Source of the DNA: a virus
Taxonomy: Duplodnaviria > Heunggongvirae > Uroviricota > Caudoviricetes
IMG/VR virus record: IMGVR_UViG_2563366840_000010
Coordinates: 1 to 45,700 of that record
Reading direction: 5' to 3' (one strand)
Length of the DNA stretch: 45,700 nucleotides
Shown: piece after piece, positions 14,649 through 45,079 of the stretch
Position numbering within the stretch: the stretch's first letter is position 1
Layout of the letters: the number at the start of each line of letters is the position of its first letter
The notes under the pieces: generated by a model
What the model saw: only the letters and a program-made list of their open reading frames with translations
What the model was told of the DNA's origin: nothing
The model's database searches: none
Made by a program: the position numbers and the translations under genes

Positions 14649-15260
14649 ATGGCTAAGTTACCGCGCCGGAAGTGCGCCAACAAGGAATGCCGCCAGTGGT
14701 TCAATCCAGTACGCGACACGCAGACCGTCTGCGGTTATGAGTGCGCCAGCGCCGTCGGGAAAGAGCAGACCAGAAAAGCCCGGGAGGCTGCACAACGCAA
14801 AGAGTCTGCCAAGCAGCGCGCCACTGAGAAGAAAGAACGTGCAGCCTGGCGCCAGCGTAAAGCTGCAGTTAAGCCGCTGAAGCACTGGATTGACCTGACT
14901 CAGCGTGCCTTCAACGACTGGCGGCGTGAAATGCTGCTGGCCGCCGGGCACGGCTGTATCTCCTGCGGAACCAAGACTGCGTTTGCCTGGCATGCCGGGC
15001 ATTACCGGACCACGGCAGCCGCACCACAGCTTCGCTTTAACCTGGACAATATCTGGCTTCAGTGCTCCGCCTGCAACGTCCACAAATCCGGAAACATCGA
15101 GGCGTACCGAGCCGCGCTGGTGGAACGTTATGGCGAAGAGCTGGTACTAGCGCTCGAGAACAATAACGCTCCGCATCGTTGGACTATTGAAGAACTGAAG
15201 GAAATCAGACTGACCGCGCTGGCTGACCTGCGCGCGCTGAAAAAGCAGGAGGCAGCATGA
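14649..15260 (+). CDS. ninG: NinG/Rap-like recombination protein (203 aa)
   Basis: Cys-rich motifs (CANKEC, CGYEC, CISCG, CSACN); listed ORF start trimmed to the ATG with GGGGGTG RBS. Confidence 0.75.
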   Translation: MAKLPRRKCANKECRQWFNPVRDTQTVCGYECASAVGKEQTRKAREAAQRKESAKQRATEKKERAAWRQRKAAVKPLKHWIDLTQRAFNDWRREMLLAAGHGCISCGTKTAFAWHAGHYRTTAAAPQLRFNLDNIWLQCSACNVHKSGNIEAYRAALVERYGEELVLALENNNAPHRWTIEELKEIRLTALADLRALKKQEAA

Positions 15261-15397
15261 CATTCGAATCCTATTTTGCCGATCACCTCCGCGTTCGCTG
15301 GCAGCGGCTTCGCTTATACCACTTTCCCGGCTCTGTGCTAACGGACTACCGGATACTGAAGAATTACGTGAAAACTTATGCTGGAGAAGCGCTATGA
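15257..15397 (+). CDS. small protein (46 aa) translationally coupled between ninG and Q
   Basis: ATG overlaps the ninG stop; stop overlaps the Q ATG. Confidence 0.35.
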   Translation: MTFESYFADHLRVRWQRLRLYHFPGSVLTDYRILKNYVKTYAGEAL

Positions 15398-16176
15398 ACC
15401 TTGAAAACACAGTGAAATACCACTTCGCTAAATCCACACTGATTAGCGATTCTCCGCGCGCTACCGCCTCCGATTCACTGACCGGTACCGACATAATGGC
15501 TGCCATGGGCATGACGCAGGAACGCGCCGCAATGGGTTACAGCGCCTTCCTCGGCAAGATGGGCATAAGCAATAACGACCGGGATCGGGCGATCGGTCTG
15601 CTGGCTGAGTACGCGATGACAAAATGCGACAAGGTTGCCGCACTGCGTAAGCTCGGTGCCGCGGTTAAACCTCAGGTGATGCACCAGTTGGCCACCTTCG
15701 CTTTTGAGGACTATTCCCGCAGCGCTGCCAGCGTGAAGCAGTGCGATTGTTGTGACGGTCAGGGCTTCATTGAGGCTGACGTGTTTACCAATAAATTCCG
15801 TAAGCCAGAAGGGAGAATGACCGTGTCCGGGATGGTGAAGGTCAAAGAATCCATCAAAGTGCTATGCAAAAAGTGTAATGGCTCTGGTGTGGTTAGTGCT
15901 TCTTGCAGTGATTGCCATGGGCGCGGCAAGGCAGTGAACCAGGCTCTTACTGAGAAACAGGGCGTTCCTGTTCTGGCTGACTGTAAGCGCTGCGGAGGGC
16001 GTGGGTATGAACGACTTCCGTCGACTGAAGCCTATGCTGCTGTATGCCAGATTACTGACGCCATTAGCCTGGACACCTGGAAAAAGTCTGTTAAGCCATT
16101 CTACGACCTGCTGATCACGAAATTTGATATCGAAGAGTCCTGGGCCGAAAAACAGCTTAAGCAGATAACGCGGTAA
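15394..16176 (+). CDS. Q: late antiterminator Q, lambda-Q family (260 aa)
   Basis: SDSPRATASDSLTGTDIMAAMGM matches lambda Q; zinc-finger CxxC pairs; followed by a pR'/qut-like sequence. Confidence 0.85.
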   Translation: MNLENTVKYHFAKSTLISDSPRATASDSLTGTDIMAAMGMTQERAAMGYSAFLGKMGISNNDRDRAIGLLAEYAMTKCDKVAALRKLGAAVKPQVMHQLATFAFEDYSRSAASVKQCDCCDGQGFIEADVFTNKFRKPEGRMTVSGMVKVKESIKVLCKKCNGSGVVSASCSDCHGRGKAVNQALTEKQGVPVLADCKRCGGRGYERLPSTEAYAAVCQITDAISLDTWKKSVKPFYDLLITKFDIEESWAEKQLKQITR

Positions 16177-16224
16177 CGCCTATAGCGATAGCCTATGATT
16201 TTGTCTTGGGCTATTTACTTTTCC

Positions 16225-16300
16225 CGAATCTGTGTTAATTTTGTCCCAACGATGGGTTAATTCGCTCGTTGTGGTAGTGAGATAAAAAGAGGCGGCGCTT
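16225..16300 (+). promoter_or_regulatory. late promoter pR' / qut-like region
   Basis: caacgatgggttaattcgctcgttgtggtagtgagat... appears near-identical to the lambda pR'-qut sequence as I recall it. Confidence 0.5.
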
Positions 16301-16381
16301 ACTACCGATTCCGCCTAGTTGGTCACTTCGACGTATCGTCTGGAACTCCAACCATCGCAGGCTGAGAGGTCTGCAAATGCA

Positions 16382-16441
16382 ATCCCGAAACAGTTCGCAG
16401 GTAATAGTTAGAGCCTGCATAACGGTTTCGGGATTTTTTAT
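16382..16441 (+). terminator. tR'-like terminator (long hairpin atcccgaaac...gtttcgggat + T-run), end of a 6S-like leader
   Basis: Seen directly; matches the lambda tR' region from memory. Confidence 0.75.
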
Positions 16442-16443
16442 TT

Positions 16444-16518
16444 GGGTCAGTCGTATAAAGGTCATTACGGAAGGCTGTTAACCTTCTTATCGTGGTTCGA
16501 GTCCACGCTGTCCCGCCA
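16444..16518 (+). tRNA. tRNA-Asn (anticodon GTT), phage-encoded
   Basis: Hand-folded cloverleaf: acceptor stem with one T-T mismatch, D-loop with GG, anticodon stem GAAGG/CCTTC and loop CTGTTAA, T-arm CGTGG-TTCGAGT-CCACG, discriminator G, CCA. Confidence 0.55.
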
Positions 16519-16554
16519 AACATGCTGGTTTAGCTCCAATGGTAGAGGTGGTAA

Positions 16555-16980
16555 ATGCCGAGCAAAGATTACTATCTTAATCGAAGGGCTAGGCTTGCTA
16601 AGGCCGTGGAAAAGTTGGGTGGTCGTTGCGCGAGTTGCGGATCCGAATATTCGCTTCAGTTTGACCACATAGACCCTTCCACCAAATCAGCAAATGTAAG
16701 CGAGATGCACTATCACTCAGATTCGGTGTTTTATGCTGAGGTTGAAAAGTGCCAACTACTATGTTCTGCATGCCACATTCAGAAAACCAAATTTGACCTT
16801 AGCTACTTAGTAGCTGGTGAGCTGAATGGTATGAGCAAGCTAACAATGGACAGCGTCCAGTTCATCAGAGAAAACTACATTCCACGACATAAGGTTTATG
16901 GAGCCAGAGGGCTAGGGAGAATGTTTGGTGTAACACATCAAACAGTGCTTTCAGCCTTAAATGGCGAAACCTGGAAATAA
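16555..16980 (+). CDS. HNH endonuclease (141 aa)
   Basis: CASCGS...DHIDP...CQLLCSACH HNH motif. Confidence 0.8.
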   Translation: MPSKDYYLNRRARLAKAVEKLGGRCASCGSEYSLQFDHIDPSTKSANVSEMHYHSDSVFYAEVEKCQLLCSACHIQKTKFDLSYLVAGELNGMSKLTMDSVQFIRENYIPRHKVYGARGLGRMFGVTHQTVLSALNGETWK

Positions 16981-17397
16981 GCTGCGCGTCAGAGGTTCGA
17001 TTCCTTTGCCCGCTCCAGTAAAAGCTTTCCAGTCTGCGATGATGGGTTCCCCGGAGTGACTGGAAAGCGACCTGGTTTTGAATGGGCGCTGCTTTTTGCA
17101 AAATTGCTGTGTGAAAATACTGACCTTTGGGTTCAGCGCTCATCCAAAAGCATCACGTGAATTCACCAACGCTCATGTACTCTCCAGGAAACAATAAGTG
17201 ATTCTGAAAAGTTCCGGTTAGATATTGCCCCGGTCACCGGATGATTTTATCTTTTGGTTCGTGGTGAATCCCCCTATGCGGCGGGGCGTCCAGTCAAACT
17301 TTTTTGTCCAGGTTTGTTTGCGCGGAACTAGTCGGCTGGGGCTGTTCCACCGGGAGGCACCCGGCGCCACCTCCTTGACGGTATTGTTATTTTTCAT

Positions 17398-17424
17398 GCC
17401 TGTTCGTCCGAGCAGGCTTTTTTT
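17398..17424 (+). terminator. intrinsic terminator (GCCTG-ttcgtccgag-CAGGC + T7)
   Basis: Seen directly; no convincing plus-strand CDS upstream. Confidence 0.6.
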
Positions 17425-17455
17425 GCCCGCATTATCTTCATTGAAAACTGGCAAC

Positions 17456-17626
17456 TCAGAGAATCATCCAAATTAAAAAAGCAGCAACGAGAGCGATTAC
17501 TAATACATTCTTCGCTTTTTCTCTTCTGCTGGCCTTCACAAAAGGATTCACTATCCGGCAGTGGCTACACACAAGTGATTCTGGGTTAATTAACTTTCCG
17601 CAGTAGGGGCAGGGCTTGATAATCAT
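17456..17626 (-). CDS. possible small zinc-ribbon membrane protein (56 aa)
   Basis: Unlisted ORF MIIKPCPYCGKLINPESLVCSHCRIV... with hydrophobic C-terminus; no clear RBS. Confidence 0.25.
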   Translation of the reverse strand: MIIKPCPYCGKLINPESLVCSHCRIVNPFVKASRREKAKNVLVIALVAAFLIWMIL

Positions 17627-17833
17627 TGGTACTAATTAAGTTGTGAGAACGTAGTCTCATTTAACCACATTTATCGAGTTGTTTTACTAATGGTCTAGTT
17701 ATTTCAGACATATTCATCAATTTCAGGCTCACGGGAATCATCCGCTACGTGCTTTGTTGATAAATCCAGCCCGTGAAGCCTGACCCTTTTCAAACACACA
17801 CACAGCGCCATCCGAAAAATCGGAGGTGAGGCT

Positions 17834-18112
17834 ATGACCAGAATGAGCACCATTTACAGCAGACTTTCATATGGAACAGGAACCACGCTGACCGGCTGCG
17901 GTGTATCAGCGAAGGCATATGCCGAAACAGCTAAAACAGCAAAAGAGGTGTCCTGGATGTTGGCCGACAGAATTGCAGGGTTAAGCCTGAGCGACTGGGC
18001 AATTATTGTCGGTATCGCATGCACTGTTATTACCTGTGCAGTGAACTGGTATTTCCGCTGGAAAGAACGGGAGGATCGGCGCAATGGCTATGCCACCAAA
18101 GCTGAAGAATAG
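17834..18112 (+). CDS. pinholin, phage-21 S21-like (92 aa)
   Basis: GGAGGTGA RBS; two TMDs; C-terminus [11 protein letters not shown] parallels S21 YFKIREDRRK. Confidence 0.8.
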
Positions 18113-18656
18113 CGTTATTGCAGCGATACCCGCTGGCGCTATTGCTATCGCTGCGGCGTTGATTACTGGCCCAACGGGTAATGATGGCCTTGAAGGTGTA
18201 CGCTATCAGCCTTATCGGGATGTTGTTGGAGTGTGGACTGTATGCTGGGGCCATACTGGTAAAGATATTATCCTCGGCAAGACCTACACCAAAGCAGAGT
18301 GCCAGGCGCTGCTGGATAAAGACCTGAATATTGTCGCCCGACAGATTAACCCATATATCAATGCTCCGATCCCCGAAACGATGAGAGGGGCGCTGTACTC
18401 ATTTGCGTATAACGTAGGCGCGGGAAACTTCAAAACCTCCACACTGTTACGAAAAATCAACCAGGGTGATTCGAAAGGCGCATGCGAACAACTGCGGCGC
18501 TGGATCTATGCTGGTGACAAACAGTGGAAGGGTTTAATCACGAGGCGTGAGATTGAGCGTGAAGTTTGCCTGTGGGCAGAGAAACCTCAGGTTCTGGGGG
18601 ATGGACTCGGGCCGCTTAACCCTGGCATTCCGGTATCAGTTCCGGGGGTATTCTGA
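18084..18656 (+). CDS. SAR endolysin, GH24 lysozyme, R21-like (190 aa)
   Basis: N-terminal signal-anchor [27 protein letters not shown] and lysozyme core close to phage 21 R as recalled. Confidence 0.85.
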
Positions 18657-19192
18657 TGAAACCCAGAAAAATTACGATTGTTGCGGTTCTGCTGGTGGCT
18701 GTCGTAATCATTATTGCAGTGCTTAGCGTATTACTGGTTCGTAGCCGCTCAGCTCTTGAAACAGAACAGAGTGAGAATCGGGTATTACGTAATGATAACG
18801 CGCTGCAGGCGACGGTGATAACTACACAGGCTTTCAACTTCAATCGGTTTAACCAGATAGCAGAGAACGCCAACCGCCTTAACTCGCTGATCGATGCCGG
18901 TACTGAGAAAACTGTCATCGAATACCGGGAGATTCTCCGACGTGAAAAGACCTGTGATCTGCCTGTTCCTGCTGATGTCGCTGGTGGGCTGCTCAAATAC
19001 GCGTACCGTTTACGTGCCAGCGCAATGCACCCCGATACCGGGAACACTAACGCAACCGATGATAGTACCGCTGCCGCCAGCTCAATGACGTATTGCCAGG
19101 CCGTCCTCTGGATTGAACCTTTGCTGGCTGTTATTGAGAAGGGCAACAATAACCTGGCGGGTATACGAGAGATTGAGAAGTTACGAAAATGA
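18656..19192 (+). CDS. i-spanin (Rz-like), N-terminal TMD (178 aa)
   Basis: ATG overlaps the endolysin stop; embedded lipoprotein ORF in +1 frame. Confidence 0.6.
   Translation: MKPRKITIVAVLLVAVVIIIAVLSVLLVRSRSALETEQSENRVLRNDNALQATVITTQAFNFNRFNQIAENANRLNSLIDAGTEKTVIEYREILRREKTCDLPVPADVAGGLLKYAYRLRASAMHPDTGNTNATDDSTAAASSMTYCQAVLWIEPLLAVIEKGNNNLAGIREIEKLRK
18894..19088 (+). CDS. o-spanin (Rz1-like) lipoprotein embedded in Rz; start possibly GTG at 18942
   Basis: Lipobox LVGC, Pro-rich C-terminus. Confidence 0.55.
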   Translation: MPVLRKLSSNTGRFSDVKRPVICLFLLMSLVGCSNTRTVYVPAQCTPIPGTLTQPMIVPLPPAQ

Positions 19193-43282: not shown

Positions 43283-45079
43283 ACTCCGGCCACGCCCTCA
43301 ACAGCCTGGGGTAATTGAAAGGTTACGTCTCTCACTGGTAAAATCCACCCAGATCTGGCTGAGGCTGTCCCGACGAATATATCGCCGCAATCACGGAGAG
43401 ATTCTTTCCGTAGCTGTGTTCATAGGCGCGCGGAGTGCGCCATGCGTGGTTTGTTGGCTTATGGCGATCCTCCTTTAGCCTCTGGTGGGGGGTTGGTTAA
43501 GAATTCCTATGGCCTAACAGGTATCGACCCAAAGGGAGGTTACTGAGCGTTAACGACCGGTGCTATGGTAGAGATGAATAACACATGTTCAATTTTTGGT
43601 GAGTCATTTTATTGAGGGTAATCCATACCAAGGAACGTGTCTTTTAACTAAGTCATAATGCCTTTCTCCTGATTAATGCCGTTGTAAATAACGAACTAGA
43701 GGGATGGAAGGCATCAGACGCTAACGAATAGAATTTAAATGCTAACAGGAAGGTTTAGGCTGCACCGCCACACGAAAAAATCCTTATTGCTGGCGATATT
43801 CCGCCGCATTCCTGTTCAGATGTTCCTCCACTCAATCAGGCTGGGCTTACTGTCTTCCCTGCATCAGATATAAAGTTATTGAAAAATCTGGCCAACGAAC
43901 ACGGTAACAGCATACATAGCCCCGAAAAAGGAGCTTCGGATGGTCTGAAAGCTCCGGAACTGTAGCCAGATAATATGACCCCTAATGACCCGTTCACGCC
44001 GTACCTGGATGGTGATGCCGGGGAATCGGATATTGAAAGGCCTACGCAGCCGGCAGTTCCGGTAGGCGCGGAAGAGGCGCGGCGCCAGTAACTGATTGCG
44101 TCAGCGCGTCCATCTAACCGACCGCATCAGTTGGACTGGCAGGTCCGACGTGAACCAGCGTACGTACAACCTACCATCTCTAATGCAGTGCACGGATGGA
44201 TGGAATCGCTGCATGAAACAGTGACCGGCGCTGCGCTTGTTCTCCGTTTGCCGCAGCAGTCGGCTGCGTAGCAGTTTCCATAACTGGTTTACCACAATCA
44301 TCATCCTGCTATAGGGTATACAGATCGATAGTGGTCATATTTTCAGGCGACTGTTCCTGACCTTTGAGTTGTCTCGAAGCTGCCGTTTCGGGCCTATATA
44401 TGCTTTCAACGCGATGGTTTGCCAGATATTTCAATAATTTTCTTTCTGATGCAGTAAATTCAATATGACCAGCATTCGTGGGACCAGGAATATCTGACCA
44501 CGCAGGCGCCGCAATACCGACGGCCACACGAATATATTCTGTTGGCGGTTAAAGATTAAACTCCCTCACAATATTTTGATTATCATCGGTAGCATCTCAT
44601 GAATCCGAACCATCGGATTTATTTTTAACAATGACTTCCATCATCAGGAAGGCATTATGCTATGGGCTATAGAGATGTTCGTTCGTATGATTCCCCCACA
44701 ATCAACCTATACCCTAACAATTCACTTAGTGTAATTCAGCGCTACCATGTCACTAGCTGATGATATGCTGCGACCAGAAGTTGAATCGGAACACGTTGGC
44801 GCATCGTCCGTGACCACGCACCGCCGCTCAGAGCCAAAAAAAGCGTCGCGAGAAGCAGAAAAAGTAAGCGTGGAGCAGACCCCTCGCTTGGCATACGAGA
44901 TGCTGAATATAACACTGCGTATATGAGGCAATTTAGTTGGCGTATACGCCTTTGCCAGATCCGGCTGTACTTCCGCGGTAAGAAACGCCACATAGCATTT
45001 AAGACTGGCAGAAGACGGAGTGGCCGAAATCCGAGGTTCCCCCGTCCCAACAGGTAATGCTGAGCCTTCTCCCAAACCA
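43234..45079. other. ~1.85 kb invertible segment between inverted crossover sites; no intact ORF >125 aa
   Basis: Flanking sites share 15 nt (cttctcccaaaccaa) in inverted orientation; central dinucleotides TT and AA. Confidence 0.5.

Follow-up and report, generated by a model that had tools for sequence, protein, structure and literature searches.

A probable mosaic of a split tRNA gene, a tRNA-Gly trailer and an STnc100-family sRNA gene in the late-operon leader of a lambdoid phage

Overall organization of the region

The region 16991–17430 of a 45,700-nucleotide (nt) stretch of viral DNA (Caudoviricetes; IMG/VR record IMGVR_UViG_2563366840_000010, positions 1 to 45,700; hereafter the window) belongs to a lambdoid phage or prophage, where it lies in the late-operon leader, downstream of the terminator tR'. 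In all likelihood it is a mosaic of three unrelated modules, namely a split tRNA, a tRNA-Gly trailer and a small RNA (sRNA) gene of the STnc100 family. The finding is real and mostly ordinary, as elements of known kinds cover most of the region; modestly novel are the evidence for a pseudoknot in STnc100 and the uncatalogued trailer RNA. Coordinates are window positions on the + strand unless stated otherwise. The nearest relatives of the window in the phage collection are mEp237, HK225 and phi80, and the order on the + strand is Q, a lambda-type pR'/6S/tR' segment, tRNA-Asn, the region described here, holin and lysozyme. The modules and their parts are as follows.

16524–16547, + strand: left stump of a tRNA-Thr gene, nt 1–24 (acceptor 5' strand and D-arm), of the Sf6/phage-21 type
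16555–16980, + strand: predicted HNH endonuclease open reading frame (ORF) of 141 codons
16978–17017, + strand: 3' piece of tRNA-Thr(UGU), nt 36–76 (nt 36–38, anticodon-stem 3' strand, variable loop, T-arm, acceptor 3' strand, CCA)
17018–17158, + strand: "tRNA-Gly trailer" RNA with two conserved hairpins
17159–17256, + strand: unstructured, lineage-specific linker (RNAfold z = +1.09)
17236–17428, + strand: STnc100 copy (Rfam RF02076)
17257–17375, + strand: structured core of STnc100 (helices P1–P5 and pseudoknot)
17376–17397, + strand: U-rich single-stranded linker
17398–17424, + strand: intrinsic terminator of the STnc100 transcript

The STnc100 copy and its conserved fold

The segment 17236–17428 is a member of the STnc100 family. 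It matches the full length of the Rfam model RF02076 with 71.7 bits (threshold 47; E = 1.5e-14) and a covariance model (CM) of our own with 91.8 bits, its terminator aligns to the terminator hairpin of the RF02076 model, and its location, between Q (15394–16176) and the holin and lysozyme genes, is that of the family. An initial annotation of 16991–17430, made by reading the sequence, had proposed a CM scan, which yielded this match at 17236–17428, and had named an sRNA among its candidate explanations; this holds for the 3' part and does not extend to the 5' part, which is tRNA remnant and trailer.

Further copies were picked by the exact, invariant 18-mer CACCGGGAGGCACCCGGC, which occurs in at least 120 IMG/VR contigs, often with two to five STnc100 copies per contig and some of them in tandem at a 253-nt period. 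Individual related loci bear L-labels here (L001, HK639; L004, FAM21845 prophage; L006, ENT1; L007, Fels-1; L154, PhiR47_1). Head-to-tail tandems of three STnc100-type cores with the 253-nt period were seen in L056 (458–981), L069 (1811–2334) and L106 (4464–4988); each of these cores has its own terminator-like hairpin, and L106 holds five cores in total. Fels-1 (936–2691) carries three STnc100 matches between Q and holin (138, 59 and 83 bits); downstream of the second lie the decayed 3' half of a tRNA-Gly and a diverged trailer copy.

The core of the window copy folds into five helices and a pseudoknot; the minimum free energy fold reproduces P1–P5.

17261–17266 / 17365–17370, + strand: P1, closing helix
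17270–17274 / 17280–17285, + strand: P2
17295–17301 / 17310–17316, + strand: P3, variable
17324–17331 / 17342–17348, + strand: P4
17350–17354 / 17360–17364, + strand: P5, with loop AGGCA
17289–17295 with 17335–17341, + strand: pseudoknot, UCCAGUC with GGCUGGG

In 59 representatives, 94.3% of the alignment cells of P1, P2 and P4 are paired, as compared to 40–48% after sliding of the partners; compensatory cells number 177, versus a mean of 54 after shuffling (0 of 500 shuffles matched the observed value). The invariance of P5 in the set selected with the 18-mer results merely from that selection, and P5 was tested in matches of our own CM within loci fetched for other reasons; there, CCGGG/CCCGG changes to CCUGG/CCAGG, with the loop AGGCA kept. 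The pseudoknot is formed by about 7 nt directly 3' of P2, which pair with the P4 loop. As the P4 loop is displaced in both MAFFT and CM alignments, covariation of the pseudoknot could not be counted by column, and a permutation test of cognate versus non-cognate strands was used instead: over 45 sequences with distinct 5' strands, complementary runs averaged 6.38 nt for cognate and 4.38 ± 0.15 nt for non-cognate strands, a difference reached in 0 of 5000 permutations. The pairs vary considerably, examples being CCAGUC/GACUGG, CUGGUG/CACCGG, AAGGUUG/CAACCUU and AGACUGACAAA/UUUGUCAGUCU. This covarying pseudoknot in the STnc100 core is new here; the Rfam consensus line printed by cmscan does not contain it. 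Near-invariant unpaired nucleotides are found in the junction between P1 and P2 (AAU), the P2 loop (CUnnGCG) and the P5 loop (AGGCA). Such a pseudoknotted, covarying fold suggests that the conserved domain of STnc100 does more than present a seed.

A GGAGG...CCTCC repeat had been pointed out as a further structural element of the stretch. The two motifs exist (GGGAGG at 17352–17357, CCTCC at 17370–17374), but a helix between them is conserved neither in the family fold nor among the family alignments: GGG belongs to the P5 stem, AGG to the P5 loop and C17370 to P1, while the rest of CCTCC is variable. The terminator, in contrast, stands as initially described, with an 8-bp stem at 17398–17417 that includes five GC pairs and a U-run (TTTTTTT) reaching to 17424, as located by a terminator scan. 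Between core and terminator, the linker 17376–17397 is unpaired in the centroid fold and, by analogy to relatives, is likely the Hfq-binding and seed region; the seed UGUGAG of the sRNA PasD (PMC8550237) maps to the equivalent linker (unit L096). The linker of the window copy is unrelated in sequence to those of other STnc100 copies.

Upstream of the core, a weak sigma-70-like promoter can be discerned by eye (-35 TTGCCC at 17225–17230, 17-nt spacer, -10 TATCTT at 17248–17253), from which transcription would start at about 17260. About one quarter of the STnc100 copies possess a good sigma-70 promoter that ends approximately 11 nt before the GAAU motif and is stronger than that of the window at the same offset. 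That every copy is preceded by its own promoter was not supported overall (score 7.67 versus 7.19 for shuffled sequence; about one quarter well placed). Since only about one quarter of the copies have a well-placed promoter, many may be processed from longer transcripts.

The genes that follow STnc100 are diverse. Among 73 distinct downstream ORFs, holin families, two of which may overlap, account for at most 27 matches and NanS-p esterases for 16; others code for Kil, GnsAB, Exc, YfbR-like and further proteins. This heterogeneity is more in keeping with an sRNA gene that stands on its own than with a dedicated regulator of a single gene downstream.

In a subclass of cores (L043 3973–4110, L059 9762–9900, L048 3470–3608 and similar ones), P2 has the form GCG.../...CGC and P3 is longer; no terminator comes next, but the Shine-Dalgarno (SD) sequence and start codon of small ORFs follow directly, so that these cores resemble 5' untranslated regions. 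In copies of the Shiga toxin (Stx) type, the 3' arms of P2 and of the terminator both read GAGGGGC, a hint at an antiterminator which the window and HK639 lack.

Known relatives of the STnc100 copy

Few sRNA families are annotated as often as STnc100, to which no function has been assigned (PMC9029176). In strain EDL933, most of 11 STnc100 copies are transcribed, one being confirmed by Northern analysis (PMC5331693), and the family is transcribed and Hfq-bound in lysogens of enterohemorrhagic (EHEC) and enteropathogenic E. coli (EPEC) (PMC5331693, PMC7873438, PMC8550237). STnc100 overlaps EcOnc27/sRNA103, an Hfq-binding RNA located just downstream of stx2B (PMC12711010, PMC7873438, PMC12370729), and at least eight Sakai prophages carry dyads of such sRNAs in the interval from the late promoter to the lysis genes (PMC7873438). 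The window copy resembles EcOnc27/sRNA103 of EHEC Stx2 prophages in its helices, its terminator and its location between Q/pR' and the lysis genes (PMC7873438, PMC12711010), but follows a tRNA trailer instead of stx2B. An Rfam scan detected no antisense partner of the AsxR or AgvB type at the window copy.

PasD1 and PasD2 of EPEC have been proposed to be relatives of STnc100 (bioRxiv 10.64898/2026.05.13.724894, PMC8550237); PasD is Hfq-dependent and encoded beside Q in a prophage, and its seed is situated in the linker that precedes the terminator (PMC8550237). Our CM matched PasD2 of strain E2348/69 with 28.2 bits (E = 3e-6), indicating a distant relative of the same core. However, PasD2 lacks the P5 hairpin and has another linker and terminator, whereas the window copy is a canonical STnc100. 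Lambda 6S RNA and StxS, short constitutive pR'-tR' transcripts that act as sRNAs, are likewise short, terminated RNAs of the lambdoid late leader, as the window STnc100 RNA would be by analogy. The window has a lambda-type copy of its own at 16236–16443. STnc100 differs from these RNAs in its position downstream of tR' and in its unrelated sequence and fold, and it does not constitute the Q-loading leader. A literature search by sequence strings matched only a quantitative PCR primer for STnc100.

The tRNA-Thr remnant and the HNH endonuclease cassette

The tRNA 3' part recognized in the initial annotation is present, with the T-arm (AGAGG/TTCGATT/CCTTT) at 16991–17007, the acceptor 3' strand at 17008–17014 and CCA at 17015–17017, but it begins earlier than was assumed, tRNA homology starting at 16978 and including the anticodon-stem 3' strand and the variable loop. 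The sequence 16978–17012 (TAAGCTGCGCGTCAGAGGTTCGATTCCTTTGCCCG) is identical in 35 of 35 positions to tRNA-Thr(UGU) of Enterobacter phages; relative to the intact tRNA-Thr gene of ENT1 (GCCGGTCTAGTTCAGTGGCAGAACGGCAGCCTTGTAAGCTGCGCGTCAGAGGTTCGATTCCTTTGCCCGGCACCA), the fragment begins at anticodon nt 36 and extends as far as the 3' end. ARAGORN and Rfam called no tRNA at 16978–17017, the only call being tRNA-Asn at 16444–16518. The 5' half, which had been reported as missing upstream, is found on the far side of the HNH ORF, where nt 1–24 of tRNA-Thr occupy 16524–16547 and homology with HK446, mEp506 and Sf6 stops exactly at 16547. It does represent a different allele, and the acceptor strands of the two stumps would pair at only five of seven positions, the initial statement thus being half right.

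The inserted DNA comprises 16548–16977 (430 nt, with an ORF of 426 nt). The ORF product shows the motif CxxC...DH...N...CxxCH and a helix-turn-helix-like C-terminal part, matches the Pfam HNH family PF01844 marginally (23.4 bits, cut-off 21.4) and phage HNH endonucleases in tblastn searches, and is labelled "HNH endonuclease" by the Prokaryotic Genome Annotation Pipeline (PGAP) in E. coli KL53, a strain with a prophage that shares 99.9% identity with window positions 16434–17850. Its GAGG ribosome-binding site straddles the left junction, and its TAA stop codon consists of tRNA nt 36–38. Only 4 of 5426 complete E. coli genomes contain the ORF, and closely related prophages are without it. Among the IMG/VR matches listed, the same ORF was present at 18 loci (93–100% identity, one copy truncated), and in 14 of these it lies between both halves of one ENT1-type tRNA-Thr with the same junctions, the left one being ...GTGGCAGA|GGTGGTAAATG... 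and the right one ...AAA|TAAGCTGC...GCCCGGCACCA. The outer flanks vary, with tRNA-Asn, tRNA-Gly or another tRNA upstream, and unrelated DNA, another tRNA or the Gly trailer downstream. Every copy lacks tRNA nt 24–35, among them two anticodon bases and the anticodon-stem 5' strand, and both stumps are perfectly conserved. The identical junctions, the varied outer flanks and the presence/absence polymorphism argue for a mobile cassette that inserts in tRNA-Thr and replaces nt 24–35; judging from motif and polymorphism, the ORF is predicted to encode a free-standing homing endonuclease.

What had been considered a decayed tRNA is thus a tRNA gene remnant, but one that was cut by insertion of the HNH ORF and not by mutational decay, its 35 nt being 100% identical to the phage gene. 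In the window, the cassette would have inserted in the tRNA-Thr gene and, by replacing nt 25–35, have split it into the two stumps. The tRNA-Thr would be dead, and the stumps may have been kept since the insertion is recent and since they provide the ORF with a ribosome-binding site and a stop codon. No new biology is needed to account for the orphan tRNA 3' end, and the locus is a clean example of a predicted homing-endonuclease cassette that destroys a phage tRNA gene and borrows ribosome-binding site and stop codon from it. Free-standing homing endonucleases occur in phage tRNA clusters, as in the case of SegB of T4 and the HNH enzymes of the T5 tRNA region. The window ORF is similar to these as a small nuclease ORF in a phage tRNA cluster whose presence/absence polymorphism and several flanking contexts imply mobility. 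Unlike them, it is located inside a tRNA gene, destroying it by replacement of 12 nt, rather than between genes, and its nuclease activity is predicted.

The 3' end of the remnant points to an additional joint. After GCCCG, the window reads CTCCA where ENT1 has GCACCA, and CTCCA together with the downstream GT(A/T)AAAGC... matches a phage tRNA-Gly(UCC) at its 3' end and in the adjoining flank, as present in E. coli FAM21845, which carries tRNA-Gly at the position of the fragment. As read from the sequence, the terminal CTCCA marks an older Thr/Gly fusion joint. At the same position, E. coli OW1E2 possesses a full-length tRNA that is a Thr/Gly chimera. From 16978 on, OW1E2 and the window share 99.7% identity, and from 16982 on the window is identical to the chimeric tRNA-Thr of OW1E2. 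An earlier recombination event would have joined tRNA-Thr to the 3' end and trailer of tRNA-Gly(UCC), giving rise to CTCCA and everything downstream. Thr/Gly chimeras or fusions in OW1E2, HK639, L022, L082 and Fels-1 suggest that tRNA genes are recombination joints between lambdoid late-region modules.

Some tRNA genes of related loci are unusual as well. The "tRNA-Gly" of HK639 (2451–2525) is a chimera of an ENT1-type tRNA-Gly 5' half and a glyT-type 3' half, joined at the anticodon loop; it has mismatched acceptor strands and was not called by ARAGORN. In the FAM21845 prophage (1296–1369), between tRNA-Ile/Met and tRNA-Thr, ARAGORN reported a tRNA-??? with an abnormal two-base anticodon that has no PGAP annotation; at the equivalent position of PhiR47_1 (1293–1369), which is a different locus, a tRNA-Lys is annotated.

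The tRNA-Gly trailer

The trailer (17018–17158) consists of hairpin 1 (17024–17034 / 17058–17068) and the long hairpin 2 (17076–17091 / 17134–17149). The inverted repeat described in the initial annotation as a 10-bp stem at 17021–17064 is real, but its proper extent is that of hairpin 1, a perfect 11-nt repeat of which, by our estimate, about 0.05 would be expected by chance in a 1.7-kb stretch. RNAfold gave z = -3.09 for 16982–17160. Trailer loci were retrieved from viral contigs by the hairpin-1 loop motif, and the following counts refer to the matches listed. An intact tRNA-Gly(UCC) lies directly upstream of the trailer in 97 of 112 loci; of the other 15, nine have the HNH/tRNA-Thr stump, three a Gly-type 3' end only (HK639 twice, OW1E2) and three something else. 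In an alignment of 26 distinct sequences, 97.2% of the cells are paired versus 38–53% with the partners slid, and nine pairs change on both sides, which was matched by 0 of 500 shuffles. G-U pairs are kept as well (e.g., columns 21–43 in all sequences, columns 16–47 in 16 of them), and their conservation points to a + strand RNA rather than a DNA structure.

Rfam E-value scans of the window, PhiR47_1 and phi467 found no family matching the trailer, which is a candidate new RNA family for curation. In phages of the HK639 and PhiR47_1 types, the trailer continues into a third hairpin and a terminator that immediately precede holin; the window lineage has, from 17159 on, an unrelated, unstructured segment in place of this part, homology to the HK639 type ending at about 17158. 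The hairpin-1 loop CTGCGATGATGGGTTCCCC resembles the tRNA-Gly part GCTGATGATGCGGGTTCGATTCCC, and the trailer could, from this similarity, be a decayed duplicate of tRNA-Gly. It would be co-transcribed with the tRNAs and might serve as a processing or stability element or give rise to a trailer-derived RNA. A comparable class are RNAs from tRNA 3' external transcribed spacers, such as 3'ETS-leuZ. Like these, the trailer starts right after the CCA end of a tRNA and is a conserved structured RNA; it differs in being phage-borne and in having lost its tRNA in the window, and any release, stability or sponge activity of the trailer would be hypothetical. Identity with the EPEC sRNA PasA was dismissed, as in E2348/69 PasA is encoded on the other strand, upstream of holin, and has an unrelated sequence.

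Two related loci show other arrangements. In L082 (1827–2086), a tRNA-Gly 5' half is fused to the hairpin-1 loop of the trailer at a shared GATGATG, which again suggests descent of the trailer from a duplicated tRNA-Gly. In L022 (1316–1432, - strand), an STnc100 core with an 8-bp P1, followed by UCCA, lies between tRNA-Thr and the trailer; either this arrangement is simply a joint produced by recombination at GC/TCCAG, or it hints at an ability of the core to replace a tRNA in processing.

Proposed function and alternative explanations

Following lambdoid late regulation and the literature on relatives, the region may work as follows. In a lysogen, pR' transcripts would end at tR', and the STnc100 RNA would arise either by independent transcription of its unit or by processing of read-through transcripts. 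This discrete RNA, about 165 nt long and ending at 17424, would bind Hfq via its U-rich 3' part and pair with mRNAs via 17376–17397, while the STnc100 terminator, in the absence of Q, would form a barrier before the lysis genes and help to keep them silent. During lytic growth, Q-modified RNA polymerase starting from pR' would read through tR', tRNA-Asn, the tRNA-Thr stumps with the HNH ORF, the trailer and the STnc100 terminator, and would so reach the holin, lysozyme and Rz genes.

Several observations weigh against the interpretation as a mosaic of split tRNA, trailer and sRNA gene, or against parts of it. The promoter in the window is weak, with 8 of 12 matches, and falls below the scan threshold; a promoter scan of 16100–17900 reported none, and scores in 98 upstream regions of STnc100 copies are barely higher than those of shuffled sequences (7.67 versus 7.19). 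The RNAfold z of the STnc100 copy is only -1.05, an sRNA acting purely by base pairing would not usually have a 5' domain so strongly conserved and pseudoknotted, and expression is known from EHEC and EPEC relatives, from which it is extended to this phage by analogy. The role of the trailer is one that we infer throughout. The HNH score is barely above the Pfam cut-off, endonuclease activity and target being predicted, and the different alleles of the two stumps mean that at least one further recombination event must be assumed.

Other origins of the tRNA fragment, and a coding function of the stretch, are each very improbable. Integrases often target tRNA 3' ends and duplicate 20–45 nt including T-arm and CCA, and size and composition of the fragment are about right for an attachment-site (att) core, that is, a host tRNA 3' end duplicated by integration of a phage or other element, as the initial annotation had considered. 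This origin is rejected as highly improbable: the 46-mer 16978–17023 is absent from 5414 of 5426 complete E. coli genomes, all 12 positives being prophage tRNA-Thr or HNH contexts without identity to a host tRNA 3' end; relatives carry a whole phage-borne tRNA at the same position; the left boundary of the fragment is the stop codon of the HNH ORF that splits one tRNA in 14 other contigs; and the site, between Q and holin, has no integrase adjacent and is far from the integrase region, which matches the window start. The right junction, between nt 35 and 36, does lie in the anticodon loop, the classic site of tRNA introns, and both stumps are perfectly conserved, as would be expected if the HNH ORF resided in a group I type intron or if a split tRNA still gave a functional tRNA-Thr. 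We give this hardly any credence and reject it, since twelve tRNA nucleotides (24–35) are missing in every copy, the 430-nt insert is nearly all ORF and leaves no space for a ribozyme core, an Rfam scan of 15000–19000 found no intron family at E ≤ 1, and the stumps in the window stem from different alleles whose acceptor strands pair at five of seven positions. As to coding, ORFs of 34–92 codons occur on both strands, and small proteins might be encoded by + strand ORFs of 34, 39 and 83 codons or by a - strand ORF of 78 codons; however, these have GTG or TTG starts, no evident SD sequence and no Pfam match, and homologues differ by 1–2-nt indels and by compensatory changes in stems, which fits selection on RNA rather than on codons. 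The earlier judgement that 16991–17430 contains no convincing coding sequence is borne out, and a coding function, too, is rejected as scarcely plausible.

A more serious competitor, albeit one we regard as unlikely, is that 17018–17430 acts mainly in cis on late transcription, the STnc100 core being a riboswitch-like, RNA-polymerase-binding or tRNA-like processing domain that, together with terminator and trailer, gates or times the lysis genes or marks processing sites of the late transcript. The core indeed has the architecture of an aptamer or ribozyme, with a closing P1, a multi-helix junction, a covarying pseudoknot, near-invariant unpaired nucleotides and an adjacent terminator. P5 abuts the 3' strand of P1 without a linker, giving a 7+5-bp stack like the acceptor/T minihelix of a tRNA, and in L022 the core sits exactly at the usual tRNA-Gly site. 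STnc100 is usually found directly upstream of holin or nanS-p genes, most copies are without a convincing promoter of their own, and the two to five copies per contig, the 253-nt tandems and the three matches between Q and holin in Fels-1 would likewise suit such a role. On the other hand, the genes that follow STnc100 vary in kind (Kil, GnsAB, Exc, YfbR-like and others), P2 and the terminator of the window showed no complementarity on which an antiterminator pairing could rest (judged by eye only), and no ligand or protein partner of the STnc100 core is known, which also counts against a cis-acting role. Relatives, moreover, are abundant, discrete, Hfq-bound RNAs with partners identified by RIL-seq in lysogens (PMC8550237, PMC7873438, PMC5331693). 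The pseudoknotted, near-invariant 5' domain, the stacking of P5 on P1 and the tandem copies also lead to a broader minority proposal, which we consider doubtful: STnc100-class RNAs would not be ordinary base-pairing sRNAs, their 5' domain being a binding or processing module (an RNase P-cut tRNA mimic, or a binder of a ligand, a protein or RNA polymerase) that controls maturation or read-through into the lysis genes, and the trailer would be a second, new class of phage RNA. An independent STnc100-family sRNA gene next to a trailer and a split tRNA remains the preferred interpretation.

Neighbouring features of the late leader

The genes and elements on either side of the region are the following.

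15394–16176, + strand: Q antiterminator, 260 amino acids (Pfam Antiterm, PF03589)
16236–16443, + strand: pR' leader (6S RNA homologue) ending in tR', with 16236–16441 being 97% identical to lambda 44575–44781
16444–16518, + strand: intact tRNA-Asn(GUU) (ARAGORN; Rfam tRNA, 55.3 bits)
17834–18112, + strand: holin (Pfam)
18084–18656, + strand: lysozyme (Pfam)

The tR' inverted repeat is located at 16381–16395 / 16421–16435 and is followed by a T-run. Within 16177–16443, the transcribed late leader is 97% lambda-like, whereas the promoter and Q-binding element upstream, as well as the Q protein, are not; the mosaic joint lies at about the transcription start of the late leader, and tRNA-Asn starts directly after the U-run of tR'. 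In ENT1 (924–997), the leader and terminator just upstream of tRNA-Asn are matched by the Rfam family isrJ (72.7 bits), and "sRNAs" of the IsrJ type may be pR'-tR' leader transcripts of the phage group of ENT1. Between the STnc100 copy and the holin gene, a 56-codon ORF at 17456–17626 on the - strand (MIIKPCPYCGKLINPESLVCSHCRIVNPFVKASRREKAKNVLVIALVAAFLIWMIL) is convergent with STnc100 and lies just upstream of holin, without a clear SD sequence; its product would have a zinc ribbon (weak matches to DUF2116 and Zn_ribbon) and a hydrophobic C-terminal helix.

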